Positions 11,819 through 61,948 of a DNA stretch of 64,000 bases are shown here, piece after piece. The notes under the pieces were generated by a model. It was not told the origin of the DNA, ran no database searches, and saw only the letters and a program-made list of their open reading frames with translations. The stretch comes from a virus. Taxonomy: Duplodnaviria > Heunggongvirae > Uroviricota > Caudoviricetes. The translations under genes and the position numbers were made by a program. Every line of letters begins with the position of its first letter. Position 1 is the first letter of the stretch. The DNA lies in the IMG/VR virus record IMGVR_UViG_3300007169_000056. One strand, 5' to 3'.

Positions 11819-13435
11819 TTAGTTTTTTGTTTCACAGTTAATTTCAACAACGAATGACCATATAGAAGATGGTGCTATTATTGAGTTTAGCATGAATTTT
11901 GCCGGAGTAGTTTCCGTTGGCCAGTTGGTGTGTTTTGAAATATACCATCCATTGCCTGAAGTAAAATTGCCAGGATGTGATACCGGAATTACTTTGATTG
12001 ACGATAGTGATAATTCGTTATTTTCAGCAAACCCAAATGGAAATTCGCTTAATGACAATGTTACAAATCCACTGTTTGTTGATCCGGGGTTGATTGATAC
12101 TTTTTTGGTTATTTTTGTAGCAAATCCACGATTGTTTCTTACGATGTAAGATTCAACAGAAGGATGAAACAGTTCTGGGATTTCAAACTTTTGACCCACA
12201 CCAAAGTCGGACAAATCGTTGTCGTTAAACACAAATCTTTCTATATTTGCACCACGTCCCAACCCTGATATTATAAATCTAGGCAATTCATCAAAACCGC
12301 TAGCTTCAAATGTGTTATTGATAAATGAAATGCTTTTGATTTTTGAGTTATTGGAAAATTTTATGATAGATTGATTAGCTTTCAATCCATTAAACTGGCA
12401 TCGTTCAAAACTAATTTCGTTTACTATTCCGTTCAAAATATCATTTTGAATATCAATCAGAGTGTCGTTCGCATTAAATATACAATCAGCAAAACAGATT
12501 TTTTTTGTTATATCAACAGATGTTGAACCGTTTTCACATCTACCGATAATAACATTCTGGAAAAAAACCTTTTCGTCGAATACTAGGTTTCTTATAGTAG
12601 TGTTTGTTGGCGACAGTTTGTATATGATTTTTGGTATACCGGGAAAACCTTGAGCACCCTGTGCGCCTTGAGCTCCTCCTGGCAACCCTTGTGGTCCACG
12701 GTCACCTTGTGGACCTTTATCACCAATTTGCCCTTTATCACCAACGGGTCCTTTATCACCATCAATTCCTTTGTCGCCGATGGGTCCTTTATCACCATCA
12801 ATACCATCTACGCCGTCTTTACCAGGCAAACCTTGTGCACCAATAAAACCTTGTGCACCAATAAAACCTTGCGGACCAATATCACCCTGTTCACCTTTGT
12901 CACCACGTTCACCTTTGTCGCCTGGTTCACCTTTGTCACCTTGTGGCCCTCTATATCCTTCTGGACCACCGGGTAGTCCTTGTGGCCCTATCAATCCTTG
13001 TGGACCTAAATCTCCCGGTTCGCCTTTGTCACCACGTTCGCCTTTGTCGCCTGGTTCGCCTTTGTCACCTTGCGGTCCTCTATATCCTTCTGGACCACCC
13101 GGAAGTCCTTGTGGACCACGATCTCCCAGTTCACCTTTGTCGCCTGGCTCACCTTTGTCACCTTGAATGCCTTTATCACCCTGTGGACCTTTAGCACCGC
13201 GATTTCCTACTAAATCACTGTCTATTATTTTGAATTTGTCGTCTTGAAAAACAACGACTCTAAAAGGATCTGAGTCATTTACAGGCGATGCACTAACGTT
13301 TTCACCAACTGGATATCCGTCTTTGTCGGTACGCATCAACAAATTAGCACCTTGAATCTCAACAGTTTTATTTGCTAAAACCTTATTGGTATCAGTGAAT
13401 TCTGCGTACTTTAACTGAGTTTTGATGATTGACAT
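11819..13435 (-). CDS. collagen-like tail fibre protein with a C-terminal non-collagen domain
   Basis: long Gly-X-Y tract (GPQGDKGEPGDKGERGDKGEPGD...), 538 aa. Confidence 0.7.
   Translation of the reverse strand: MSIIKTQLKYAEFTDTNKVLANKTVEIQGANLLMRTDKDGYPVGENVSASPVNDSDPFRVVVFQDDKFKIIDSDLVGNRGAKGPQGDKGIQGDKGEPGDKGELGDRGPQGLPGGPEGYRGPQGDKGEPGDKGERGDKGEPGDLGPQGLIGPQGLPGGPEGYRGPQGDKGEPGDKGERGDKGEQGDIGPQGFIGAQGFIGAQGLPGKDGVDGIDGDKGPIGDKGIDGDKGPVGDKGQIGDKGPQGDRGPQGLPGGAQGAQGAQGFPGIPKIIYKLSPTNTTIRNLVFDEKVFFQNVIIGRCENGSTSVDITKKICFADCIFNANDTLIDIQNDILNGIVNEISFERCQFNGLKANQSIIKFSNNSKIKSISFINNTFEASGFDELPRFIISGLGRGANIERFVFNDNDLSDFGVGQKFEIPELFHPSVESYIVRNNRGFATKITKKVSINPGSTNSGFVTLSLSEFPFGFAENNELSLSSIKVIPVSHPGNFTSGNGWYISKHTNWPTETTPAKFMLNSIIAPSSIWSFVVEINCETKN
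12890..13150. repeat. tandem duplication of about 130 bp inside the collagen-like gene
   Basis: caccacgttcacctttgtcgcctggttcacctttgtcacc...ggaccacc recurs 130 nt later; both protein copies read GPEGYRGPQGDKGEPGDKGERGDKGE. Confidence 0.7.
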
Positions 13436-24146: not shown

Positions 24147-24680
24147 ATGAGAATCAATTTTTTGGCAGGCCCCGGTGCGGGCAAAAGCACCACAGCAGCA
24201 TGGTTGTTCAGTGAAATGAAAACCAAACATTATTCGGTTGAACTAATAACCGAATACGTCAAAAGCTGGGCGACCCAACAACGTAAAGTTGCACCTTTTG
24301 ATCAGGTATATTTGTTTGGAAAACAAATGCAGTACGAGTATCGGTTTTTGAACGCCGGGATCAAAAACATTGTCACAGACAGTCCTCTTGTGTTGTCGTG
24401 TATATACTCGGATGTATATTATCCCAAATTGAAAATTGGAGAAAAACTTTGGCCGGTATTAAATGAATACGACCGAATGTATCCGTGTGTTAATATCTAC
24501 TTGGAACGTAAGGACAAACGTTACAACCAAGAAGGTCGATATCAATCATACGAAGAAGCAAAAAAGATTGATCAGGTGGTAAAAGACTTTATAAATCAAC
24601 ACTATCAACATGTATATTATGTTGACTATTCAGATAGAAAAGCCATATTGGATATCGTTTCAAACTGCGCCTCGTTATGA
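24147..24680 (+). CDS. P-loop NTPase of the AAA_28 / NadR-kinase-like family (possible nucleoside or nucleotide kinase)
   Basis: Walker A INFLAGPGAGKSTTA at the extreme N-terminus; 177 aa. Confidence 0.45.
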   Translation: MRINFLAGPGAGKSTTAAWLFSEMKTKHYSVELITEYVKSWATQQRKVAPFDQVYLFGKQMQYEYRFLNAGIKNIVTDSPLVLSCIYSDVYYPKLKIGEKLWPVLNEYDRMYPCVNIYLERKDKRYNQEGRYQSYEEAKKIDQVVKDFINQHYQHVYYVDYSDRKAILDIVSNCASL

Positions 24681-24938: not shown

Positions 24939-26087
24939 ATGATCAAGACCTATTCTACGCTCTACACCAAGGATTCACTCGGAAACATTCGTGTCTGGTA
25001 CATGGAACAGAACGGTAGCAAGTATCGTACTGTCGCTGGACTCACCGATGGTGAAAAGGTGACTTCCGAGTGGAGTCATGCTGAAGCCAAGAATGTTGGG
25101 CGGTCAAATGAGACCACCGCAATCGAACAGGCAACGGCTGAAATCGAAGCCAAGTACAAGAAACAGTTGAAGACTGGATACCACAAAAGTGTCAAGGACG
25201 TTGACGTTTCTACGTATGTGGAACCTATGTTGGCACAACCTCTTAACAAGCTCACCAAGCAACCGGACTTTGCCAAGGATAAGTGGGCAATGCAGTGTAA
25301 ATTCAATGGCAATCGTTGTATTGCTACCAAGGACGGGTTGTTTACCAGAAAGGGTGAGAAGTATGTCAGTGTACCGCACGTTGAGAACGCTCTCAAACCT
25401 TTCTTCAAGGAATATCCCAATGCAGTTCTCGACGGTGAGCTGTTCAATAATGATCTTCGTCAACAGCTGAACGAAATCAGCAAGTTGATTCGTAAGACGA
25501 AAAATATTGATCCTTCCGATTTGGCAGAAAGTGAGAAGAAGGTCAAGTTTTATATCTATGACGGTTACAATTTCCGTGGCAAATCGGATATTTTGGACGA
25601 GGAAGCTCCATACTCTGAACGCAAGAATTGGATCGACAAGGTTGTGATTCCTCTTTCCAAGTATTTTGTTGAAGTCGAAACCACGATTGTCAAGTCGAAT
25701 GACCACATGAACCAGTTGTTTCAGGATCTTCTCAATGACCAACAGGAGGGTGGCATTCTTCGTAAAATGGATGCTCCTTATGAGCACAAGCGTTCCAAGA
25801 ATCTTGTGAAGGTCAAGAGTGAAGATGATGACGAGGGTACGATTCTTGACATCACAGATGGTGATGGTAACTGGAAGGGTGCTGCTACCAATGTGACTCT
25901 CAAGTGGAAGAACGTTACATTTGATGCTGTGTTTAAGGGTAGTTATGAGAAGCGTGCTCAAATCTTGAAGGAAAAGAACAAGTGGATCGGCAAGGAGGTT
26001 ACGTTCCTTTATATGGGACTTACCGGACTTGGAACACCGAATTATGGACGTGTCGATCCTGATAATTGTTTCAAGAGTGATCGATAA
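24939..26087 (+). CDS. ATP-dependent DNA ligase
   Basis: motif I KFNGNR (KxNG variant), LDGELF, EGGILRK, NLVKVK nucleotidyltransferase motifs. Confidence 0.7.
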   Translation: MIKTYSTLYTKDSLGNIRVWYMEQNGSKYRTVAGLTDGEKVTSEWSHAEAKNVGRSNETTAIEQATAEIEAKYKKQLKTGYHKSVKDVDVSTYVEPMLAQPLNKLTKQPDFAKDKWAMQCKFNGNRCIATKDGLFTRKGEKYVSVPHVENALKPFFKEYPNAVLDGELFNNDLRQQLNEISKLIRKTKNIDPSDLAESEKKVKFYIYDGYNFRGKSDILDEEAPYSERKNWIDKVVIPLSKYFVEVETTIVKSNDHMNQLFQDLLNDQQEGGILRKMDAPYEHKRSKNLVKVKSEDDDEGTILDITDGDGNWKGAATNVTLKWKNVTFDAVFKGSYEKRAQILKEKNKWIGKEVTFLYMGLTGLGTPNYGRVDPDNCFKSDR

Positions 26088-33676: not shown

Positions 33677-33704
33677 TTGACGTTTTCTGAATCTAGGGTA
33701 TAGT
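33677..33704 (+). promoter_or_regulatory. sigma70-like promoter (TTGACG, 16 nt, TATAGT) upstream of the NMNAT-Nudix gene, embedded in a 7-bp inverted repeat
   Basis: atctagg (33691-33697) pairs with cctagat (33721-33727) across the -10 and +1. Confidence 0.45.
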
Positions 33705-33784
33705 TATCAACGTAATCAGACCTAGATTTTGATATGGTCGGTTTACAAAAACATAAACAAACATAGAAAGGTATAGATAAATCT

Positions 33785-34744
33785 ATGAAGGAAAAGACTG
33801 CTAAGCCCGCAGATGTGGGCGTTATTGTTGGCCGGTTTCAGGTCAACGAACTTCATGAGGCTCATATTGACCTCATCAATTCTGTTGCTCAGAAGCATGA
33901 TCGGGTGCTTCTTTTCTTGGGTAACAGCATCATCCGGAATACCACCTCTAATCCACTTGACTATCGGGCACGTCGTGCCATGATTGCTGACAAGTTTCCG
34001 AACGTCGAGGTGCATTACATCAATGATCATCCATCAGATGCTGTATGGTCTAAAAATCTTGACAAGCAGATCACAGAACAACTGCTTCCGCTTCAGACGG
34101 TTACACTGTATGGTAGCCGTGATAGTTTTCTCAAAGCATACAGCGGAAAGTTCAACGTATGTGAACTTGAGGCGACCACGTTTATCAGTGGTACCGAGGT
34201 TCGTCGTCGAGTTTGTAACAATTATCCTCCCACAGCTGACTATCGTGCCGGAATGATTGCAGCCACCGCATATCGTTATCCTACGGCGTTTCAGACTGTA
34301 GACATCGCTGTTGTGAACGACAAGCGAGAGATTCTGCTGGCCCGTAAGCCCGATGAAAAGAAGTGGCGATTCATTGGAGGTTTCAGCGATCCTCGTAGTC
34401 CATCGCTTGAGGCAGACGCAAAGCGTGAGGTAAGTGAGGAAGCCGGTATTGAAGTGGATGGCATTACGTATCTTGGATCTACGTTGATTGATGATTGGCG
34501 TTATCGTGGTGAACAGGACAAGATCAAGACTGCTCTGTTTGTTGCCAAGTATATGTACGGAAAGCCAGAGGGTGCTGATGACATTGCTGAAGTCAAGTGG
34601 GTTCCAATTGGTACCGGACTCAGCAAGGACAACGTTGAACCTCTTCACCATGTTTTGGTGGATATGTTCAACGATAAGTTTGGCGGAAATCGTGATCTTC
34701 AAGACAAGTTTTTTCAGCCAAATGTTGACGGTAATATGACTTAA
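33785..34744 (+). CDS. bifunctional NMN adenylyltransferase / Nudix hydrolase (NadM-Nudix type)
   Basis: N-terminal GRFQVNELHEAH cytidylyltransferase motif; C-terminal Nudix box GGFSDPRSPSLEADAKREVSEEAGIE. Confidence 0.7.
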   Translation: MKEKTAKPADVGVIVGRFQVNELHEAHIDLINSVAQKHDRVLLFLGNSIIRNTTSNPLDYRARRAMIADKFPNVEVHYINDHPSDAVWSKNLDKQITEQLLPLQTVTLYGSRDSFLKAYSGKFNVCELEATTFISGTEVRRRVCNNYPPTADYRAGMIAATAYRYPTAFQTVDIAVVNDKREILLARKPDEKKWRFIGGFSDPRSPSLEADAKREVSEEAGIEVDGITYLGSTLIDDWRYRGEQDKIKTALFVAKYMYGKPEGADDIAEVKWVPIGTGLSKDNVEPLHHVLVDMFNDKFGGNRDLQDKFFQPNVDGNMT

Positions 34745-34751
34745 AAATTAT

Positions 34752-35063
34752 ATGAAAACATTCAAAGTTTGGGCGTGTACTGCCAATCGTGATCAAACCG
34801 AAGGACGTGGACCTAGTTATGACGTATGTTATGCTGAGACCCGTGAAGTTGCGCTAAAAATCGTAAACAACCCATTGTTCTACGGAAAGTATGGTGTGAT
34901 GGGTTGCCAACCCTTCGATGGTGGCAAGTACGATGTTAGTGAACGAGAAATGTTTGTTTATGAAAGCATTTCTGAATATTTGGAAAGTGAAAAGAATGCC
35001 GAAATCAAAGCAGCTTTGAACAAGCTGTCTGACAAGGAAAAGAAACTGTTGGGTTTGATGTAA
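34752..35063 (+). CDS. small hypothetical protein
   Basis: ORF between the NMNAT and NAMPT genes. Confidence 0.4.
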   Translation: MKTFKVWACTANRDQTEGRGPSYDVCYAETREVALKIVNNPLFYGKYGVMGCQPFDGGKYDVSEREMFVYESISEYLESEKNAEIKAALNKLSDKEKKLLGLM

Positions 35064-35069
35064 AACACC

Positions 35070-35097
35070 TTGACTTTGAGTGAAGTTGAGGTACAAT
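35070..35097 (+). promoter_or_regulatory. sigma70-like promoter (TTGACT, 16 nt, TACAAT) upstream of NAMPT
   Basis: consensus-like hexamers; 68-nt leader with AAGGA SD. Confidence 0.55.
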
Positions 35098-35165
35098 GAA
35101 AGAGTAGAAACGTAGTAAAGATTAAGGTACAGATAAAATCATTACAACAAAAGGAAAATAAGATT

Positions 35166-36785
35166 ATGAATAAGTATAATATTGGTGACACTGTTATGAT
35201 TTCGACCGATTTGATGGATAATTCGGCGGGATCTATTAGACAAGTTGCAGAAGTGTTTCGTAACGACAATGTGGTTCGTTATTTGCTAACTGGTACTCGC
35301 GCTCTCTATAACGAGAATGAACTCACCCGACCTACCAAGAAGCAGATTGAAGACGCCAAGAATGGCAATTCGATCCGCAATGGATCGTTTGTCAAGAACA
35401 TTTGTTTGACTACAGATTCGTATAAGTTGAATCACTGGAATCAGTATCCCAAGGGCACCGAGAAGGTTTATAGTTACTTTGAGTGCCGTAAGGGTGCTAA
35501 GTTTGCTGAGACTCCGTTCTTCGGACTTCAGTATATTATCAAGAACCACCTTGAAGGCGTGGTTGTGACCCGCGAGAAGATTGAGAAGGCTGCCAAGTTG
35601 TGTAAGGCACATTTTGGTGACGAGAAGTATTTTAACCGTGAAGGTTGGGAGTACATTCTGAACAACTTTGGTGGTAAGTTGCCGGTTGTTATTAAGGCCG
35701 TTGAGGAGGGAACCGTGGTTCCTATCAACAATGTGTTGATGACTATTGAGAATACCGGTGGATGGGAAACCGCTTGGTTGACCAACTTCCTTGAGACGAT
35801 TTTGTCTCAGGTTTGGTATCCTATTACTGTGGCGTCTTTGTCCCGAGAAGTGAAGATGAATATCAAGGAGTATCTTGACCTCACTTCGGATGGTGGTCTT
35901 CTCAATTTCGGACTGCACGATTTTGGTTTCCGAGGCGCATCTTCGTGGGAGACTGCTGGTATTGGTGGTGCTGCCCACCTGATTAACTTCCTCGGCACCG
36001 ATACGGTTGTGGCTATGGAAGTGGCAATCAACTACTATAATGCCAACCTTGATGGTCTGGCGTATAGTGTGGCGGCTACCGAACACAGTGTTATGACTGC
36101 CCTTGGTAGGGATGGGGAGGTTGCTGTGGTTGAAAGTCTTCTCAATGAATATCCTACGGGTATTCTGTCTGTTGTTGCCGATAGTTACGACATTTATAAC
36201 TTTGTTGATAACATTGTTGGAAAGAAATTCAAGGATCGTATTTTGGCACGTAAGGGTGTGTTTGTGGTTCGTCCCGATAGTATCACTCCTACTCACCAGA
36301 CTCCCGAGGAGGAGATGGTGTGGATCATGGAATCCTTGTGGAAGAACTACGGTGGCACGGTGAACAGTAAGGGATATAAGTTGATCAATCCTTCTGTCCG
36401 TGTGTTGTGGGGTGACGGCATTGATCTTGATGGTATCAAGAAGATTCTGTATGCTGTTACCAAGGCGGGATTTGCCACGGAGAATATCGCTTGTTTTGGT
36501 ATGGGTGGGGGTCTTCTCCAGAAGGTCAATCGTGACACTCAACGCTGTGCTTTCAAGTGTAGTGCTCAGTACCGTGATGGTCAGTGGTATGACATTCAGA
36601 AGAATCCCAAGGACGTTTCTAAGGCTTCTAAGAAAGGTCGTCTCAAGTTGACTAAGGTTGATGGTAAGTTTGTTACTGTCAATGAAAACGATCCCGGTGA
36701 GGATTATTTGAAGGTTGTGTTTACGAATGGTGTGTTGGTCAAGGAAATTGATTTTGACACTGTTCGCAAGAACGCTGCTCTGTAA
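35166..36785 (+). CDS. nadV: nicotinamide phosphoribosyltransferase (NAMPT / NadV)
   Basis: 539 aa; GLHDFGFRGASS and other NAMPT-family motifs. Confidence 0.85.
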   Translation: MNKYNIGDTVMISTDLMDNSAGSIRQVAEVFRNDNVVRYLLTGTRALYNENELTRPTKKQIEDAKNGNSIRNGSFVKNICLTTDSYKLNHWNQYPKGTEKVYSYFECRKGAKFAETPFFGLQYIIKNHLEGVVVTREKIEKAAKLCKAHFGDEKYFNREGWEYILNNFGGKLPVVIKAVEEGTVVPINNVLMTIENTGGWETAWLTNFLETILSQVWYPITVASLSREVKMNIKEYLDLTSDGGLLNFGLHDFGFRGASSWETAGIGGAAHLINFLGTDTVVAMEVAINYYNANLDGLAYSVAATEHSVMTALGRDGEVAVVESLLNEYPTGILSVVADSYDIYNFVDNIVGKKFKDRILARKGVFVVRPDSITPTHQTPEEEMVWIMESLWKNYGGTVNSKGYKLINPSVRVLWGDGIDLDGIKKILYAVTKAGFATENIACFGMGGGLLQKVNRDTQRCAFKCSAQYRDGQWYDIQKNPKDVSKASKKGRLKLTKVDGKFVTVNENDPGEDYLKVVFTNGVLVKEIDFDTVRKNAAL

Positions 36786-36832
36786 TTGAATTGCCACAAA
36801 GGTTTACGGTTATCCTTCACACAAAACCGTTC

Positions 36833-36861
36833 TTGACTTTCTATAAACATCGTGGTAAGCT
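36833..36861 (+). promoter_or_regulatory. repeated promoter element copy 1 (TTGACTTTCTATAAACATCGTGGTAAGCT)
   Basis: matches 26 of 28 nt of the 38509 copy; -10 ends 6 nt before the ATG at 36868. Confidence 0.5.
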
Positions 36862-36867
36862 GATTGT

Positions 36868-37077
36868 ATGATGAAATACAACCTTGCTCTCAAAACTGGT
36901 GGATTGATGGAAGATCCTGAATGGCATTACGACAACATTCGTGTAATTGAAGCGGATAATTTGATTGATGCAAAAAACAAATACGCTGAACTTACAGGAC
37001 TTGTTGATAAGCCACATTGGAATGCAAATCAACAGACATATTTTGGATGGCATATTGTTGCATTGACAGAAGAATAA
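36868..37077 (+). CDS. small hypothetical protein
   Basis: ORF right after promoter copy 1. Confidence 0.4.
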   Translation: MMKYNLALKTGGLMEDPEWHYDNIRVIEADNLIDAKNKYAELTGLVDKPHWNANQQTYFGWHIVALTEE

Positions 37078-37101
37078 GTGGTTATAAATCAAAGTAACTC
37101 T

Positions 37102-37278
37102 ATGGAACAAACTCCATACGATAAAGGACGTGCGTATTGTAAAAATACGCATGGAATGAACAAATATCTTGAGGACAACCCGTATGATCCTAAAACAGAG
37201 GAATATACTCAGTGGAGAGAAGGATTCCAAGACGAACGGGTATCGCATCTTGAAGGATATGAAGAATACTACTCTTGA
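37102..37278 (+). CDS. small hypothetical protein
   Basis: preceded by aaagtaactctATG, identical to the 37873-37886 leader. Confidence 0.35.
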   Translation: MEQTPYDKGRAYCKNTHGMNKYLEDNPYDPKTEEYTQWREGFQDERVSHLEGYEEYYS

Positions 37279-37308
37279 CTTTCTACAAACACAGTGATAG
37301 TGTATAAT
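37275..37308 (+). promoter_or_regulatory. repeated promoter element copy 2 (TTGACTTTCTACAAACACAGTGATAGTGTATAAT)
   Basis: same TTGACTTTCTAYAAACA core; TATAAT 3 nt before the ATG at 37312. Confidence 0.4.
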
Positions 37309-37311
37309 CAC

Positions 37312-37527
37312 ATGAACATCATTAGCATCATCAATACGAATACAGTTAAAGACATTCCTGATGCCCTGCGGGCTTTGGCTAATATCGTGGAAAAGGATAT
37401 TGCTATTCAAGGTTGCAGAGCAAATTCTATAGGAATGTTCGGGGAAATTGATAGTGTATCAGGCGATTTTGATTATCAAATTCAACAAACTAATTTCACA
37501 AGCCTTTCTGAGTCGGTGATAAACTAA
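37312..37527 (+). CDS. small hypothetical protein
   Basis: start trimmed to the Met after the -10 element. Confidence 0.35.
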   Translation: MNIISIINTNTVKDIPDALRALANIVEKDIAIQGCRANSIGMFGEIDSVSGDFDYQIQQTNFTSLSESVIN

Positions 37528-37531
37528 AAAT

Positions 37532-37852
37532 ATGAGTTATCTAGGTGAAACAGTGGTGGATGTATCTACACATCCAGAATTCAAACATTATACAGCCAAT
37601 GATTGGGCAATGTCTTTTATTTCAAGATATGGTCAAATTGACGGTGCTCACCACAAAACGTGGGTATTGGATCAGGTTGCGCGATGTTTGAAAAATACAC
37701 CGATTGTAGTTTTAGAAGCTCGATGGACAGATCACGAATCGGAATATCGTATTCTCACAGGAGAACCCAGTGAAGAATACAAAGAATGGGTCAAGGACAT
37801 GACGAGTGGAGTCAACGAGGGATACGACTACGACACAGGAATTGCTCCTTGA
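37532..37852 (+). CDS. small hypothetical protein
   Basis: AGGA-like SD; its stop lies inside the next promoter copy. Confidence 0.4.
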   Translation: MSYLGETVVDVSTHPEFKHYTANDWAMSFISRYGQIDGAHHKTWVLDQVARCLKNTPIVVLEARWTDHESEYRILTGEPSEEYKEWVKDMTSGVNEGYDYDTGIAP

Positions 37853-37877
37853 CTCTCTATAATCTTCTTGGTAAAGT
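37849..37877 (+). promoter_or_regulatory. repeated promoter element copy 3 (TTGACTCTCTATAATCTTCTTGGTAAAGT)
   Basis: TTGACT, 17 nt, TAAAGT; ATG 6 nt after the -10. Confidence 0.45.
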
Positions 37878-37883
37878 AACTCT

Positions 37884-38372
37884 ATGAAAAATATTATTCC
37901 TCAAGACCGTGTGCTTAAACTGAACGACCCCAACGTCACAAAGCGTGAATATGACGCTATTATTGGAGAAATTGGAGAACGTGTGGATTATGTTTGGCGT
38001 AAACTATTGAAGATTTCGGGTCGTAGACTTAATTGGTATGCATTCCAGAACGACGTTGAGTATAATGATGGTGATGGAAGCAGTGGTGGAAGTTTTGATC
38101 CAGAAACCGATGGTGAATTCATTGAACTTTCGGGTGATTATGCAAGTAGGGAAGTTGATGGTGATTTTGCAACGGGATTTCCCACCCGTTTTTTGTGGAC
38201 CGATGACGATATTTGGACGAAAGAGGTTTTGGACCATGTTGATCAAAACAAGAAACTGAAAGAATCAGCGAAACAAAAGGCTGAACTTTCTAAGGTTGCT
38301 CGCACCAAGATTATTGAGTCAATCAAGAGTAAGTTGACCAAGGAAGAACTGAAGTACGTATCATTCAAATAA
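37884..38372 (+). CDS. hypothetical protein
   Basis: ORF after promoter copy 3. Confidence 0.4.
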   Translation: MKNIIPQDRVLKLNDPNVTKREYDAIIGEIGERVDYVWRKLLKISGRRLNWYAFQNDVEYNDGDGSSGGSFDPETDGEFIELSGDYASREVDGDFATGFPTRFLWTDDDIWTKEVLDHVDQNKKLKESAKQKAELSKVARTKIIESIKSKLTKEELKYVSFK

Positions 38373-38375
38373 TTT

Positions 38376-38522
38376 ATGGTTGAAACCGATATCACAAAAC
38401 GTTGGGAGCAAGGCATTCGTCATCATCCAAAAAGCATTGAAATCTTAAAAGCTATCATGAACAATGGATGGAAGACGAAAGAAATTCTAAAAACAAAACA
38501 TGTTGTGATTGACGTTCTATAA
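38376..38522 (+). CDS. small hypothetical protein (48 aa)
   Basis: hand-translated MVETDITKRWEQGIRHHPKSIEILK...; stop lies inside promoter copy 4. Confidence 0.3.
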   Translation: MVETDITKRWEQGIRHHPKSIEILKAIMNNGWKTKEILKTKHVVIDVL

Positions 38523-38537
38523 ACATCGTGGTAGGAT
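38509..38537 (+). promoter_or_regulatory. repeated promoter element copy 4 (TTGACGTTCTATAAACATCGTGGTAGGAT)
   Basis: 26 of 28 nt identical to copy 1; ATG 9 nt after the -10. Confidence 0.5.
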
Positions 38538-38546
38538 ATTGAAACT

Positions 38547-38861
38547 ATGAAGATCAAAACTTTTGTCATCGTTGTTGCTTCCATCGTCACTCTCACCGGA
38601 TGTCGTGGCCGCAACGATCCACAAACAAAGGCAAATAATTGGGTCAATGTCAATAATCCTGAATTTGTTGTGGATACTCCCAAGGGTAAACTGTTCCGAA
38701 TTTGGATTGATATGGGTGCAGGAAACCACCCGGATCGTATTTACTTTTTTGAAAATGCCACCAACAATACTATCAGTGTCAACAAAACTATCAGTAACGG
38801 AAAAAGCTCACATACCGAGACGATTGTGGTGATCGATGGTGTTGAGTATATTCGTAAGTAA
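38547..38861 (+). CDS. small lipoprotein
   Basis: signal peptide plus lipobox LTGCRG. Confidence 0.4.
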   Translation: MKIKTFVIVVASIVTLTGCRGRNDPQTKANNWVNVNNPEFVVDTPKGKLFRIWIDMGAGNHPDRIYFFENATNNTISVNKTISNGKSSHTETIVVIDGVEYIRK

Positions 38862-38866
38862 ACAAT

Positions 38867-39373
38867 ATGAGTGAAGAATCCAAAGAGTTCCGAAATGTTC
38901 ATTCCGCCAAGTTTTATCTCAACATTTACGTTGAACGTGGGCGTGATCTACGAGTAATTCGCAATATTCCAATTGATGAGATCGGACGTTTTGATGTGTG
39001 GCAATGTGTTTTTGAGAAGGAGCCAGAAGCATATCGGGAGCTTTGTGTCAAAGAATGGTATAATGATAACCTTAAATCGTCAGACAACGATGATGTAAAC
39101 AAATTCCGGTTGGAGTTCTCTGTTTACAGACTTATTCAACTTGAAGAATGGAACACTTCATTTACCGTGCAAGATGCGATTAAGATCATTTTTGATTGTT
39201 ATGGAACAGAGTGTTTGCCATTTCTCATTGAAAAAGCAGAAAAATGTGTGGAATCTCGAAAAGAAATTGTCAAGCCATATTACAAGCCCGACAACGAATG
39301 GGTTGGGTTTGCAGAAAGAGTATTAGAAAAATTGAAACAGTATGAACGACACTACACAGAAAAGGACCATTGA
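38867..39373 (+). CDS. hypothetical protein
   Basis: ORF only. Confidence 0.4.
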   Translation: MSEESKEFRNVHSAKFYLNIYVERGRDLRVIRNIPIDEIGRFDVWQCVFEKEPEAYRELCVKEWYNDNLKSSDNDDVNKFRLEFSVYRLIQLEEWNTSFTVQDAIKIIFDCYGTECLPFLIEKAEKCVESRKEIVKPYYKPDNEWVGFAERVLEKLKQYERHYTEKDH

Positions 39374-39485
39374 CGATGTTTGTGGTCAACCGAAAGGATC
39401 ATTTCAGAAGTTTTTACAAACGATTGAACTTGAAAACAAGCAATCCGAAGAACGAAGATCAGAAAGAATCAGAAAGCATATCAAT

Positions 39486-40268
39486 ATGAAGAATTTGTCA
39501 AACGAAATTGTGCAGTGGATCAAGGATTATGCCACCAAAAACAACCGTAAGTCGCTGGTCGTGGGTGTATCGGGTGGTGTGGACAGTGCGCTTGTGAGCA
39601 CTCTGTGTGCCATGACAGGTCTACCTACGCATTGTGTAGTGATGCCGTGTCAGACCAAGACAGATCAAACGGATCGTGGTAACAAGCACATTGAATGGCT
39701 TCGCAGCAAATTTGATAATGTTTACTACGAGTGTGTAGACCTTACCAACACGTTTGAAGCGTTTCAACGTGTGACCACCACTTGCTATCACAATAAATTG
39801 GGCTATGCCAACAGCAAGAGTCGGCTTCGCATGGTAACTTTGTATCAGATTGCCACGGCTACTAACGGTTTGGTTGTTGGAACCGGCAACAAGGTTGAAG
39901 ATTTTGGTGTGGGTTTCTTTACCAAATATGGTGACGGTGGTGTGGACATCAGCCCTATTGGAGATCTGCTCAAGAGCGAAGTGCGAACCATGTGTCGTGC
40001 TTTGGGAGTTCTTCCAGAACTTAGTGAAGCTGTTCCTACCGATGGACTGTGGGACGATACTCGTACCGACGAGGATCAAATTGGTGCTACGTATGACGAA
40101 TTGGAATGGGCTATGGAGTTTTTTGAATCAAACGATCCAGGCGACATTCATTTGTGGGGAGGCGAAGTGACCACTCGTCAGCGTGAAGTTCTTGCCATTT
40201 ACGACAAGTGGCACAATGCTGGTGCTCACAAATTGGCCCCAATTCCAGTCTTTGTGCGAAATGCGTAA
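39486..40268 (+). CDS. nadE: NH3-dependent NAD+ synthetase
   Basis: PP-loop SGGVDSALVSTLC; FFTKYGDGGVDISPIGDLLKSEV and the C-terminal region align with NadE; maximal ORF starts at 39342 but 39486 gives the canonical length. Confidence 0.75.
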   Translation: MKNLSNEIVQWIKDYATKNNRKSLVVGVSGGVDSALVSTLCAMTGLPTHCVVMPCQTKTDQTDRGNKHIEWLRSKFDNVYYECVDLTNTFEAFQRVTTTCYHNKLGYANSKSRLRMVTLYQIATATNGLVVGTGNKVEDFGVGFFTKYGDGGVDISPIGDLLKSEVRTMCRALGVLPELSEAVPTDGLWDDTRTDEDQIGATYDELEWAMEFFESNDPGDIHLWGGEVTTRQREVLAIYDKWHNAGAHKLAPIPVFVRNA

Positions 40269-40272
40269 ATCG

Positions 40273-40461
40273 ATGAAACAAAAGAACGTCAAGAAAATCA
40301 ATGAGATTGTGGGCAATTTGACGGAGTTGGAAACCGCTATTGCCCAACATTCTTATTATGATGGACCCGCTACCAAGACCAAACAACTGGAGTGGTTCCG
40401 CAAACTACAAGAAATTACTGCAAAGTTAAACAGAATTTATCGTGACGAAACCACGTTGTGA
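40273..40461 (+). CDS. small hypothetical protein
   Basis: start trimmed to the Met after the nadE stop. Confidence 0.3.
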   Translation: MKQKNVKKINEIVGNLTELETAIAQHSYYDGPATKTKQLEWFRKLQEITAKLNRIYRDETTL

Positions 40462-40487
40462 TTTCTATGTCTACTCAGTGATGTTGT

Positions 40488-51845: not shown

Positions 51846-52361
51846 ATGAGTAATTTATTAAAACATGCTGAACGTGAACTGTCTCTCATTGGTTATGACG
51901 GTACAGATGAATATGATAATACAGCAAAAAAGGCTATATTAGAACTAATAGAAACATTTGCCAAACAAGGTCACAGCGGATTTAGCGCTGGTTACGTGGT
52001 AAGTCTTTTCAACAAACTGGCAAGATATGAGACATTATCTCCATTGACTGGTAATGATGATGAATGGAATGAAATACTCGACAATCAACCTCAACACGGA
52101 GTTTTGTTTCAAAATAATAGAAACAGTGCTGTTTTTAAAACAGACGGTGGATGTTATTATATTGATGCTATTGTGTGGATTGACGAAACCGGATGTAGCT
52201 TCACCAATGGAAGAAGCCGAGGATATATCAAGTCGTTTCCATTCACACCCAAAACGTTTTATGTACATGTAGATGCAAATGATGTCGTCATAGACACCGA
52301 AGAACATCAGAAAGCTCTCGACTATTATCACCATGAACAAAACGTTGGAAAAGTTTTGTGA
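51846..52361 (+). CDS. hypothetical protein
   Basis: ORF only. Confidence 0.4.
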   Translation: MSNLLKHAERELSLIGYDGTDEYDNTAKKAILELIETFAKQGHSGFSAGYVVSLFNKLARYETLSPLTGNDDEWNEILDNQPQHGVLFQNNRNSAVFKTDGGCYYIDAIVWIDETGCSFTNGRSRGYIKSFPFTPKTFYVHVDANDVVIDTEEHQKALDYYHHEQNVGKVL

Positions 52362-56180: not shown

Positions 56181-57161
56181 ATGAACAATCTTAAAATCTT
56201 CAGTGGTACCAGCAACATTCCTCTTGCACAAAAAATTGCCGGTAATCTTCTCACCAATCTAGGTGAGATCTATCATCACACGTTTCCTTCTGGTGAATCG
56301 TATTGTCAGTTTAAGGAAAATATTCGCGGCAGCGATGTGTTTTTGATTCAATCTATCAGTCAACCTGCTAATGAAAATCTGATGCAGCTTTTGATTATGG
56401 CTGACGCTGCTAGACGTGCCAGCGCAGATCGTATCACGGCCGTGATTCCATATTTTGGATACAGCAGACAGGACCGTAAGGACAAAAGCAGAGTGCCTAT
56501 CAGTGCCAAGTTGGTGTTGGACCTGTTTGAAGCAAGTGGCATTGACCGTGTGGTTACCATGGATCTTCATAGTCCACAGGTAGGTGGGTTCACCAATTTG
56601 CCATTTGATCATCTTACATTTGAACCCGTATTGATTGATCATATCAAGTCGTATGGTGTCAATGTCAAGGATATTATCATTATGGCGCCTGACGTTGGTG
56701 CTGTAAAGCGTGCTGAAAAGTATGCTAGTTATTTGAAATGTGACTTTGGTTTTATCTCCAAGAAGCGAATTGGTGATGAACAGGTCGAATTGCAGAGTAT
56801 TTCAGGTAATGTTCAGGACAAACACGTATATCTTATCGATGATCTTACTGAATCGTGTGGCACTTTGATTCAGGCGGGCGCAGCGTGTAAGAAAAATGGT
56901 GCCCGTAGGGTTGTTGGTGCTGTAACGCATGGTTGTTTTACTGAGACCGGCATGGAAAGACTGTCAGCAGCAATGCCACACCCTAATTTGTTGGAACAAA
57001 ATCCGTCTATCGACGAATTTATTCACAGCAACAGTGTTAATCACTGGTGGAAAAACAAGTACAAGCCAAGCGATATTGTATCGTTGGATGTTAGCAGTTT
57101 GTTTGCCAAAGCAATCAATAGTATTCATAAAAACGAAAGTGTTAGTGAATTGTTTGTATGA
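56181..57161 (+). CDS. prs: ribose-phosphate pyrophosphokinase family (Prs; ADP-ribose pyrophosphokinase-like alternative not excluded)
   Basis: KIFSGTSNIPLAQKIA, NENLMQLLIMADAARRASA, ITAVIPYFGYSRQDRK and DDLTESCGT PRPP loop; start trimmed to MNNLKIF. Confidence 0.8.
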   Translation: MNNLKIFSGTSNIPLAQKIAGNLLTNLGEIYHHTFPSGESYCQFKENIRGSDVFLIQSISQPANENLMQLLIMADAARRASADRITAVIPYFGYSRQDRKDKSRVPISAKLVLDLFEASGIDRVVTMDLHSPQVGGFTNLPFDHLTFEPVLIDHIKSYGVNVKDIIIMAPDVGAVKRAEKYASYLKCDFGFISKKRIGDEQVELQSISGNVQDKHVYLIDDLTESCGTLIQAGAACKKNGARRVVGAVTHGCFTETGMERLSAAMPHPNLLEQNPSIDEFIHSNSVNHWWKNKYKPSDIVSLDVSSLFAKAINSIHKNESVSELFV

Positions 57162-59230: not shown

Positions 59231-59635
59231 ATGAACACTCTTAAAATTGGAGTCGCTTGTGTTTTGTTGGATCGAGACAACAATGTTTGGCTTAGCCAAC
59301 GACTTGGACCCTACCAGACCGGAAAATACGCATGTCCGGGTGGCATGGTTGATCTAACCGATACGAATGATGTAGTTGCAATTCGACGAGAAATCTTAGA
59401 AGAAACTGGCATCAATATTGTAGATACAACCAGATTCAAGCGTAGTATTAAATCATATCATCCGGGTGGCAAAAGTGATATTACACAATGGTTTCTTTTA
59501 ATCTTGAAACCATCTGAAACACCTGTTAATCTGGAGCCTACAAAACATGGCGATTGGAAAAAGTATTCGTTAACGGATGCTAAGCTATTGCCATTAATGG
59601 TCAGTACCAACGAAGTATTGGACACACTAAAATGA
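59231..59635 (+). CDS. Nudix hydrolase
   Basis: Nudix box GGMVDLTDTNDVVAIRREILEETGI. Confidence 0.65.
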   Translation: MNTLKIGVACVLLDRDNNVWLSQRLGPYQTGKYACPGGMVDLTDTNDVVAIRREILEETGINIVDTTRFKRSIKSYHPGGKSDITQWFLLILKPSETPVNLEPTKHGDWKKYSLTDAKLLPLMVSTNEVLDTLK

Positions 59636-61423: not shown

Positions 61424-61948
61424 ATGAACATTGAAGACACGAAAAATTTCGCAGGAAAAAACTTGACCACTGATACCCACATTTATTTCTGGACAAATTG
61501 GTTGAGCAATTTCAAGGTATGTAAAATAACCGATCCACTGATTCGTATTTCGTTTAATACGACCGAACAAGCCTACATGTGGCGAAAAGCCTACTTTTTT
61601 GGTGATGAAGATACCATGAAAAAATTGGAAAATGCTGATCTGACTCCCAGAGAAGCAAAAAACTTGGGCAGAGAAGTGGTAGGCTATAACGACGATTTGT
61701 GGGGGTGTGTCCGATATGGATACATGGTGTATGTCAACTATTTGAAGTACACACAAAACGATGACTTGAAAAAGAAACTTTTGGATACCGGTGAAAAAGT
61801 TCTTGTAGAAGCATCACCTTATGATAAAATCTGGGGAGTCGGTTTTTCAGCCGACAACCCGCTTATTTTGGACGACAAAAATTGGACCGGACAAAATTTG
61901 CTTGGCAAAGCACTAATGGATGTTCGTAAAAAACTTGCAAACGCATGA
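61424..61948 (+). CDS. NADAR (YbiA-like, DUF1768) domain protein
   Basis: DLWGCVRYGYM ... EASPYDKIWGVGFSADNP matches NADAR conserved blocks. Confidence 0.5.
   Translation: MNIEDTKNFAGKNLTTDTHIYFWTNWLSNFKVCKITDPLIRISFNTTEQAYMWRKAYFFGDEDTMKKLENADLTPREAKNLGREVVGYNDDLWGCVRYGYMVYVNYLKYTQNDDLKKKLLDTGEKVLVEASPYDKIWGVGFSADNPLILDDKNWTGQNLLGKALMDVRKKLANA

Follow-up and report, generated by a model that had tools for sequence, protein, structure and literature searches.

The stretch analysed here, referred to as the window, is the 64,000-nucleotide (nt) DNA of IMG/VR virus record IMGVR_UViG_3300007169_000056, from an uncultured phage of the Caudoviricetes. Between 33 and 41 kb, where all genes lie on the + strand, it carries an island of genes for the synthesis of nicotinamide adenine dinucleotide (NAD). 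These encode a nicotinamide mononucleotide (NMN) adenylyltransferase (NMNAT) of NadM type fused to a Nudix hydrolase, a nicotinamide phosphoribosyltransferase (NAMPT) and an NAD synthetase (NadE). A ribose-phosphate pyrophosphokinase (Prs) and a second Nudix hydrolase are encoded further downstream. The corresponding features are as follows.

33785..34744, + strand: bifunctional NadM-type NMN adenylyltransferase fused to a Nudix hydrolase (profile, PDB and motif evidence)
34752..35063, + strand: 103-residue protein (phrog_5370) between NadM and NAMPT, an optional island member (PHROG match)
35166..36785, + strand: NAMPT of NadV type, 539 residues (Pfam, NCBIfam, PDB)
35175..35393, + strand: window-specific in-frame insertion in NAMPT, 219 nt or 73 codons, after codon 3 (comparison with relatives)
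39342..40268, + strand: NadE-family single-domain NAD synthetase, 308 residues, with the conserved core from 39486 (profile and comparison)
56181..57161, + strand: class I Prs (profile and PDB)
59231..59635, + strand: stand-alone MutT-like Nudix hydrolase (profile matches)

A first-pass annotation made from the sequence had already named a NadM-Nudix and a NAMPT at these positions, and profile searches confirmed both. The NAMPT open reading frame (ORF) matched Pfam NAMPT_N (133.7 bits) and NAPRTase (151.9 bits), the NCBIfam model NF006629 (539.7 bits) and solved NAMPTs at 417-427 bits, the top one being PDB 6TAC (427 bits). Its IMG/VR relatives share 87-92% identity. In the NadM ORF, Pfam detected a NUDIX domain (48 bits), and both halves were recognized by NCBIfam models for bifunctional NMNAT/Nudix proteins (E 1e-9 to 2e-14). 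The N-terminal half aligned with the M. jannaschii NMNAT 1F9A and the full-length protein with the Francisella NadM-Nudix 2QJT. The translation contains nucleotidyltransferase motifs of HxGH type (GRFQVNELHEAH; GRFQ..HEAH), an ISxTxxR-type motif (ISGTEVRRR) and the REx2EE core of a Nudix box (REVSEEAGI).

The N-terminus of the NAMPT is unusual. Relatives begin with MNKNICLTTDSYK, whereas the window reads MNK, then 73 additional residues, then NICLTTDSYK. This insertion was not present in any relative, and its in-frame codon usage is coding-like. No homologue of it was found in phages, in a set of 5.8 billion proteins, in the window or in the compared loci; it had no Pfam match, and an Rfam scan gave no intron match.

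The third gene had been described as a bona fide ammonia-dependent NadE spanning 39486-40268. Its family assignment stood: the ORF scored 167 bits to Pfam NAD_synthase and 177 bits to TIGR00552 (cut-off 63.65). NAD_synthase was the only domain found in the 308 residues, with no fused glutaminase domain, and the PP-loop SGGVDS (SGGxDS type) is invariant across the family. The misassignments that had been named for checking, PncB for the 35166 gene and QueC for the 39486 gene, were thus not borne out, and the profile searches upheld NAMPT and NadE. The proposed start did not stand, and translation very probably begins at ATG 39342. In relatives with 83-93% identity the distal part of the N-terminal extension (TIDDVCGQPKGSFQKFL) is conserved as protein, and over 39366-39416 all five nucleotide differences from the related contig L102 are synonymous third-position changes. 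The extension in relatives (L102 2672-2926) is about 85 residues long and carries a zinc-ribbon-like motif, CPVCG...PYCPK. That of the window (39342-39485, 48 residues) lacks the zinc-ribbon-like segment and keeps the distal 40 residues, and so reads as a remnant of the longer form. The family is widespread in environmental phages, with 418 IMG/VR stretches and at least 8000 candidates in the protein set.

Profile searches also agreed with the earlier calls of a distal Prs and an extra Nudix hydrolase. In the Prs the Pribosyltran_N domain is complete (174 bits). The protein also passes the threshold of NF002320 (NCBIfam), and its score against B. subtilis Prs 1DKR is 231 bits.

In order to determine how the island is organized elsewhere, we compared it with related contigs. 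About ten related IMG/VR contigs carry NadM, NAMPT and Prs in this order within ∼2 kb, and none has NadE within 10 kb. NadM orthologues there are 80-87% identical and adjoin NAMPT, and Prs follows NAMPT immediately in three of these contigs. A different arrangement was found in the nearest NadE relatives (87% identity), contigs L102 and L103 (Logan SRR20069386/85), where NAMPT and NadE are directly adjacent. L102 has NadM, the 103-residue gene, NAMPT and NadE contiguously, and the shorter L103 covers NAMPT and NadE. The 103-residue gene occupies the same site in L091 and L102 (64-78% identity); other relatives are without it. The direct succession of NAMPT and NadE supports the earlier proposal that NadE belongs with the NAMPT-NMNAT pair.

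L102 and L103 resemble the window at ∼76-80% nucleotide identity, and the L102 gene order is the same. They differ in having a NAMPT without the insertion, no cassette block of 2.5 kb, and a NadE next to NAMPT with the full 85-residue extension. Nucleotide alignment of L102 with the window gave three collinear blocks (34107-35174, 35394-36846 and 39366-40253). The window is therefore derived twice, by the NAMPT insertion and by a block of 2.52 kb (36847-39365), whose left junction (36846/36847) lies in a promoter spacer and whose right junction is at 39365/39366. The alignment points to an older layout in which NadM, the small gene, NAMPT and NadE were all adjacent, and to the 2.52 kb block as what cost NadE its zinc-ribbon part. 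When searched against INPHARED phages by megablast, the island had no match.

Compared with contig L094, the window shows a broader patchwork of cassettes gained and lost in the interval from NAMPT to Prs. Segment 26084-26364 of the window corresponds to L094 3671-3952, which lies just upstream of Prs in that contig but 30 kb away in the window. Taken together, the relocated segment and the many insertions and deletions indicate a mosaic variable region.

The genes of more distant NadE relatives (62-73% identity) closely follow one for a PncB-type nicotinate phosphoribosyltransferase. In L097 (7993-10813) a PncB-type enzyme, a homologue of the anti-Pycsar protein Apyc1 and NadE are consecutive; NADAR, Prs and a faint isochorismatase match lie nearby. 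These phage PncB-NadE pairs (L001-L007, L097/L098, L104) share with the window the NadE subfamily, an accessory-region setting and, in several cases, a nearby Prs, but the partner is a nicotinate phosphoribosyltransferase instead of NAMPT/NadM. Clusters of pncB-nadD-nadE have been reported in gut jumbo-phages (PMC11662467).

The first-pass annotation had placed a sigma70-like promoter of the pattern TTGAC(T/G), 16-17 nt, TAnnnT before each of the three enzyme genes. The window has 13 matches to this pattern where 4.0 are expected, and 0 of 100 shuffles reached 13; the copies in the island start at 33677, 35070, 36833, 37275, 37849 and 38509. The promoters, hairpins and small ORFs of the island are as follows.

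33677..33704, + strand: sigma70-like promoter before NadM (TTGACG, 16 nt, TATAGT), leader of ∼80 nt (pattern match)
35070..35097, + strand: sigma70-like promoter before NAMPT (TTGACT, 16 nt, TACAAT) (pattern match)
36806..36830, + strand: possible short hairpin directly 3′ of the NAMPT stop, adjoining a promoter copy (weak evidence)
36833..36861, + strand: promoter copy 1 of a 25-nt repeat family (D1), whose spacer holds the left boundary of the 2.5 kb insertion
36868..37278, + strand: cassette 1, ORFs 36868-37077 (69 residues) and 37078-37278 (66 residues, GTG start abutting the stop codon) (ORF calls)
37275..37303, + strand: promoter copy 2 (pattern match, repeat)
37312..37852, + strand: cassette 2, ORFs 37312-37527 (71 residues) and 37532-37852 (106 residues, phrog_23179) (ORF calls, PHROG)
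37849..37877, + strand: promoter copy 3 (pattern match, repeat)
37884..38522, + strand: cassette 3, ORFs 37884-38372 (162 residues) and 38376-38522 (48 residues) (ORF calls)
38509..38537, + strand: promoter copy 4, with 96% identity to copy 1 across 25 nt (pattern match, repeat)
38547..39373, + strand: ORFs 38547-38861 (104 residues, predicted lipoprotein) and 38867-39373 (168 residues, all-alpha) (ORF calls)
40439..40462, + strand: terminator-like hairpin after a small ORF (about 40273-40461) past NadE (consensus scan only)

The promoters before NadM and NAMPT were upheld. Both leave leaders of 70-80 nt, and their position and sequence are conserved: a near-identical NadM promoter lies at equal distance upstream in L081, L082, L084-L086, L088 and L090, and the NAMPT promoter is kept in about ten relatives. 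No match to the pattern was found upstream of NadE, so that part of the claim fell. The NadE unit is probably read from promoter 38509, together with the genes for the lipoprotein and the all-alpha protein.

The remaining copies are arranged differently, close to start codons. The motif TTGAC-N17-18-TAnnnT occurs 30 times in the window (8.7 expected), and 12 times with an ATG 6-9 nt past the -10 element (0.87 expected). All but one of these 12 lie on the + strand at ORF starts, including 36868, 37312, 37884, 38547 and the DNA ligase gene at 24939; promoter positions of this type include 6339, 10114, 17060, 24905, 26334, 31856, 36833, 37275, 37849, 38509 and 53294. For promoter copy 1, ATG 36868 lies 6 nt past the -10 element. 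Such spacing suggests that many mRNAs are leaderless or nearly so, including that of the ATP-dependent DNA ligase gene. Shine-Dalgarno motifs are practically lacking: their cores precede 13.7% of 124 genes compared with 10.7% of random positions. Gene upstream regions are A-rich throughout the window, with T at position -1 in 72% of genes. The four 25-nt repeats in the island are 84-96% identical. The stop codon of the previous gene falls inside the next promoter three times, twice as TGA in the TTGAC of the -35 element (37275-37280 and 37849-37854) and once as TAA in the spacer (38509-38525), reflecting extremely compact packing. The 5-bp stem of the hairpin at 36806-36830 is kept in 11 sequences, among which one pair covaries (G-C/A-U) and G-U variants also occur.

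We consider it likely that this locus is a gene set for NAD salvage or reconstitution of the NARP2 type, in a large phage. The first-pass annotation had recognized NAMPT plus NMNAT as the phage NAD-reconstitution pair, and this pair has been published as NARP2, with the chemistry nicotinamide + PRPP (phosphoribosyl pyrophosphate) + ATP -> NAD (bioRxiv 10.1101/2024.02.11.579819). Experiments in that study showed that NARP2 overcomes Thoeris, DSR and related systems, and it also defeats aRES. The window contains what characterizes that pathway in sequence, a Nampt homologue with NAMPT_N and NAPRTase domains and an Nmnat in the same phage. It thereby resembles phage KVP40, whose NARP2 consists of NadV/Nampt and NatV/Nmnat-Nudix. 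Unlike KVP40, its NMNAT is of a divergent NadM type, and the window adds Prs, NadE and the 73-residue N-terminal NAMPT insertion; Vibrio phage NAMPTs are ∼39% identical to that of the window.

The sequence shows the enzyme families with their catalytic motifs, the gene order and how far it is conserved, the junctions of the insertions and the conservation of promoters; we infer the substrates, the timing of expression, a loop recycling ADP-ribose and a role in counter-defence. NAMPT would convert nicotinamide and PRPP to NMN, which the NadM domain would adenylate to NAD. The fused Nudix domain would probably split ADP-ribose into AMP and ribose-5-phosphate, from which the phage Prs could make PRPP again. 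As a whole, the set would return both products of defence NADases, nicotinamide and ADP-ribose, to NAD. NadE would carry out an ATP- and ammonia-dependent amidation in the deamidated branch, most likely turning nicotinate adenine dinucleotide (NaAD) supplied by host NadD into NAD, and would so recover nicotinamide that the host had deamidated to nicotinate. Transcription would start at sigma70-like promoters of host type, presumably early in infection. The idea that the distal Prs supplies PRPP, already put forward in the first-pass annotation, is supported by the clustering of Prs with NAMPT in relatives: it is a canonical class I enzyme, and it adjoins NAMPT or lies within ∼2 kb past it in about ten of them.

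Several observations weigh against this interpretation or narrow it. The match of the NadM ORF to Pfam CTP_transf_like is weak (18.4 bits, cut-off 21), and the NadM protein search did not recover KVP40 NatV at E 1e-5. In the Nudix half, a Trp aligns with a proline of the Francisella protein (2QJT). ADP-ribose pyrophosphatases carry a signature proline downstream of the Nudix box, and its absence makes the substrate of this domain uncertain. PncA, PncB and NadD were not found in the 64 kb window, and the NadE branch would therefore rely on host enzymes. For this branch the earlier suggestion that the phage rebuilds NAD without host enzymes is not borne out, the window containing neither a deamidated-route NaMN (nicotinate mononucleotide) adenylyltransferase nor PncB. 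The closest solved relative of NadE is Francisella 3FIU, which is not a canonical NAD synthetase; it outscored the next solved chain with 116 versus 89 bits from the single sequence and 142 versus 106 bits from the family profile. A literature search found no experimental test of any phage NadE, and the NARP papers are without NadE. Finally, NARP2 raises NAD in cells without any defence system (bioRxiv 10.1101/2024.02.11.579819), which does not let a general metabolic role be told apart from one in counter-defence.

This last point bears on whether the genes are general auxiliary metabolic genes that raise NAD for replication irrespective of any NAD-depleting defence of the host, which we regard as possible but not probable. 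The NAD increase in defence-free cells fits such a role, environmental surveys class NAMPT, nadM and nadE as metabolic genes, and the KVP40 pathway was described as salvage before the link with defence. However, the window contains two further genes of interest here.

51846..52361, + strand: Tad3-family protein, homologue of a type I Thoeris inhibitor (PF25185 123.7 bits, cut-off 27; PDB 9B7D_B 'Tad3' E 8e-21)
61424..61948, + strand: NADAR-domain protein (PF08719 155 bits; 48% identical to the L097 NADAR gene)

Tad3 acts on ThsB, the TIR protein of Thoeris, which it binds and blocks. The homologue at 51846-52361 is, by its similarity, a real anti-defence candidate, located outside the NAD island. 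With the Tad3 homologue and the NADAR protein in the same window, this phage appears to combine a Thoeris inhibitor acting at the signal level with NAD repair at the metabolite level. A purely metabolic role is also less consistent with the Apyc1 gene between PncB and NadE in a relative. Moreover, the phage DNA ligase is ATP-dependent, and there is therefore no obvious phage consumer of NAD in the window. The two roles can nevertheless coexist.

The Francisella match raises a separate issue, the substrate of NadE. In Francisella, NadE is an NMN synthetase that acts with NadM in place of NadD (PMC3376133). An enzyme of this kind in the phage would convert NaMN to NMN; all routes would meet at NMN, which NadM prefers as substrate, and NaAD would be bypassed. 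Besides the margin by which 3FIU leads the solved structures, the trio NAMPT, NadM-Nudix and NadE mirrors the F. tularensis network of NadV, NadM-Nudix and NadE (PMC3376133), with the same three families and with Francisella proteins as the best solved relatives of both phage NadE and NadM-Nudix. The window encodes NadM, and a NadD did not turn up in it, the window being only part of the phage genome. On the other hand, the partner of NadE in sister phages is PncB, and no NMNAT lies within 10 kb; such a pair works via host NadD, and therefore only if NadE uses NaAD. Residues behind the NaMN preference of Francisella NadE, the bulky Tyr27, Gln133 and Arg236, were reportedly identified by Sorci et al. 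in 2009. Small residues stand at the counterparts of Tyr27 (N/A/S) and Gln133 (T/C) in the phage family; the Arg236 position could not be placed, as alignment of the NadE C-terminus to PDB chains gave no useful match. In addition, a Tyr that never varies in the phage family corresponds to Tyr32 of the canonical B. subtilis and B. anthracis enzymes, the Francisella residue at this position being Ser. Nor does NadM itself call for an NMN synthetase, since archaeal NadM operates with canonical NadE (PMC3376133). We favour the view that NadE probably amidates NaAD, which also fits the PncB-linked relatives relying on host NadD, and that amidation of NaMN is unlikely.

Whichever substrate it uses, it is possible, though less likely than not, that NadE defines an extension of phage NAD reconstitution; it is combined with NAMPT and NadM here and with PncB (once with Apyc1) in sister lineages. 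It may recover nicotinamide sent by a host nicotinamidase into the deamidated branch. It may otherwise serve as a Francisella-style NMN synthetase, with flux converging on NMN.

The first-pass annotation had also counted seven small ORFs between NAMPT and NadE (36868-39373), each with its own promoter copy, and proposed them as defence inhibitors co-regulated with the pathway. We found eight small ORFs in four cassettes, each cassette headed by one of the four promoter repeats, and all eight with coding-like codon usage. That they are anti-defence proteins co-regulated with the NAD pathway seems to us quite unlikely. Their location in an accessory region driven by early promoters, in a phage with other counter-defence genes, is what one would expect of such proteins, which are usually small and unannotated. 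But the block is specific to the window and missing in the closest relative, whose NAMPT and NadE genes adjoin. The small ORFs have no Pfam match, though the same library detects Tad3 and Apyc1, and no named PHROG function. Only ORFs 37532 and 38547 have homologues in related contigs; the family of ORF 37532 comprises ∼110 phage proteins, and its distant homologues lie away from NAD genes. Structure models of ORFs 37532 (predicted local distance difference test, pLDDT, 92) and 38867 (pLDDT 94.8) matched no fold in the PDB; homologues of both ORFs were found, but neither could be assigned to a family. ORF 38547-38861 encodes a predicted lipoprotein, which may be of the superinfection-exclusion type; it has a signal peptide and the lipobox LTGC and is probably co-transcribed with NadE.

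We favour instead the view that NadE was ancestrally next to NAMPT and that the four-cassette block of 2.5 kb entered by recombination within a promoter copy. On this view, the small ORFs would be passengers of a variable region and not conserved parts of the pathway. The cassette pattern resembles the shuffling of the PeSL promoter-terminator cassettes of T4-type phages (PMC2839356, PMC4122927), in which repeated early promoters likewise lie at junctions of insertions and deletions, and one copy in the window (36806-36861) follows a hairpin, of 5 bp. The likeness is incomplete: three of the four copies in the window are without a hairpin, and the promoters of the window abut start codons.

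A last alternative takes the NAMPT-like gene for Namat and the Prs-like gene for Adps of NARP1, which would make NAD directly from ADP-ribose. It is extremely unlikely: a Prs-family gene adjoining the NAMPT-family gene or within ∼2 kb of it in relatives is superficially like the NARP1 operon, but we rejected this reading on the similarity of both proteins to canonical enzymes (for Prs, the full Pribosyltran_N domain, a pass on the NCBIfam model and a score of 231 bits against the B. subtilis enzyme, to which published Adps is only ∼27% identical; for NAMPT, 417-427 bits to authentic NAMPTs), the gene order is opposite to adps-namat, and an NMNAT, which defines NARP2, is present, no phage having been reported with both pathways (bioRxiv 10.1101/2024.02.11.579819). 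NARP3 (PnuC and NadR) was likewise rejected, its paper being without NadE and no PnuC or NadR having been seen in the window. Separately, a P-loop protein is encoded at 24147-24680 (+ strand; AAA_28, 36 bits), for which no PDB relative was found. The AAA_28 family includes the ribosylnicotinamide kinase domain of NadR, and nicotinamide riboside kinase activity of this protein is only a lead.

Phage NadE in NAD counter-defence had been presented as unfamiliar. This novelty claim fails, because phage NadE is already annotated and a comparable cluster has already been tied to NAD depletion. GenBank annotations of NadE include those of cyanophages S-SSM7, P-TIM68 and Bellamy, pelagiphage HTVC008M, Bacillus phage G and others. 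A 642 kb phage (LR756502.1) has NadM and NAMPT adjacent and NadE elsewhere, and papers on snow viruses and gut jumbo-phages describe nadE with NAMPT/nadM or with pncB/nadD. In Xanthomonas phage X1 (OQ427096.1, 106879-112638), NadE, NMNAT and NAMPT lie within 6 kb, and the corresponding paper links the NAD genes to NAD-depletion defence (PMC13384950). X1, a cultured phage, is like the window in that these genes are interleaved with hypothetical genes. It is unlike the window in the low identity of NadE (∼34%) and NadM (∼26%), in having NadE first in the order, and in that pncB and nadD are also reported in it; two X1 hypothetical genes between NadE and NMNAT, considered as PncB/NadD candidates, had no Pfam match. 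The locus is thus a further example of a published phage counter-defence gene set and introduces no new principle. Overall, the gene calls of the first-pass annotation largely held and its reading of the enzymes was sound, whereas the NadE promoter, the NadE start and the number and status of the small ORFs required revision.

Elsewhere in the window, tRNA and Rfam scans of the 64 kb found nothing. The sole substantial minus-strand ORF identified (11819-13435) encodes a 538-residue protein with collagen triple-helix repeats; the rest of the window is read on the + strand. Accessory genes include those for a dCMP deaminase (18835), a Band_7/SPFH protein (23137), a SpoU methylase (26921) and a radical-SAM/Fe-S protein (30338), and further Pfam matches within 50-31228 were to SET, PAS, GNAT, a Zeta_toxin-like domain and two Methyltransf_24 proteins.

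Bacterial immune responses commonly end in NAD depletion, and NAD reconstitution by phages is an active field (NARP1, NARP2, NARP3, NARP1-AP). The locus shows promoter repeats that let such islands gain and lose cassettes. Together with its relatives it forms a natural series, NadM-NAMPT-Prs, NadM-NAMPT-NadE and PncB-NadE, usable to ask whether NadE or Prs improves counter-defence. If NadE does extend NAD reconstitution, a set of three or four enzymes would outdo the two-gene NARP2 in hosts that carry PncA.

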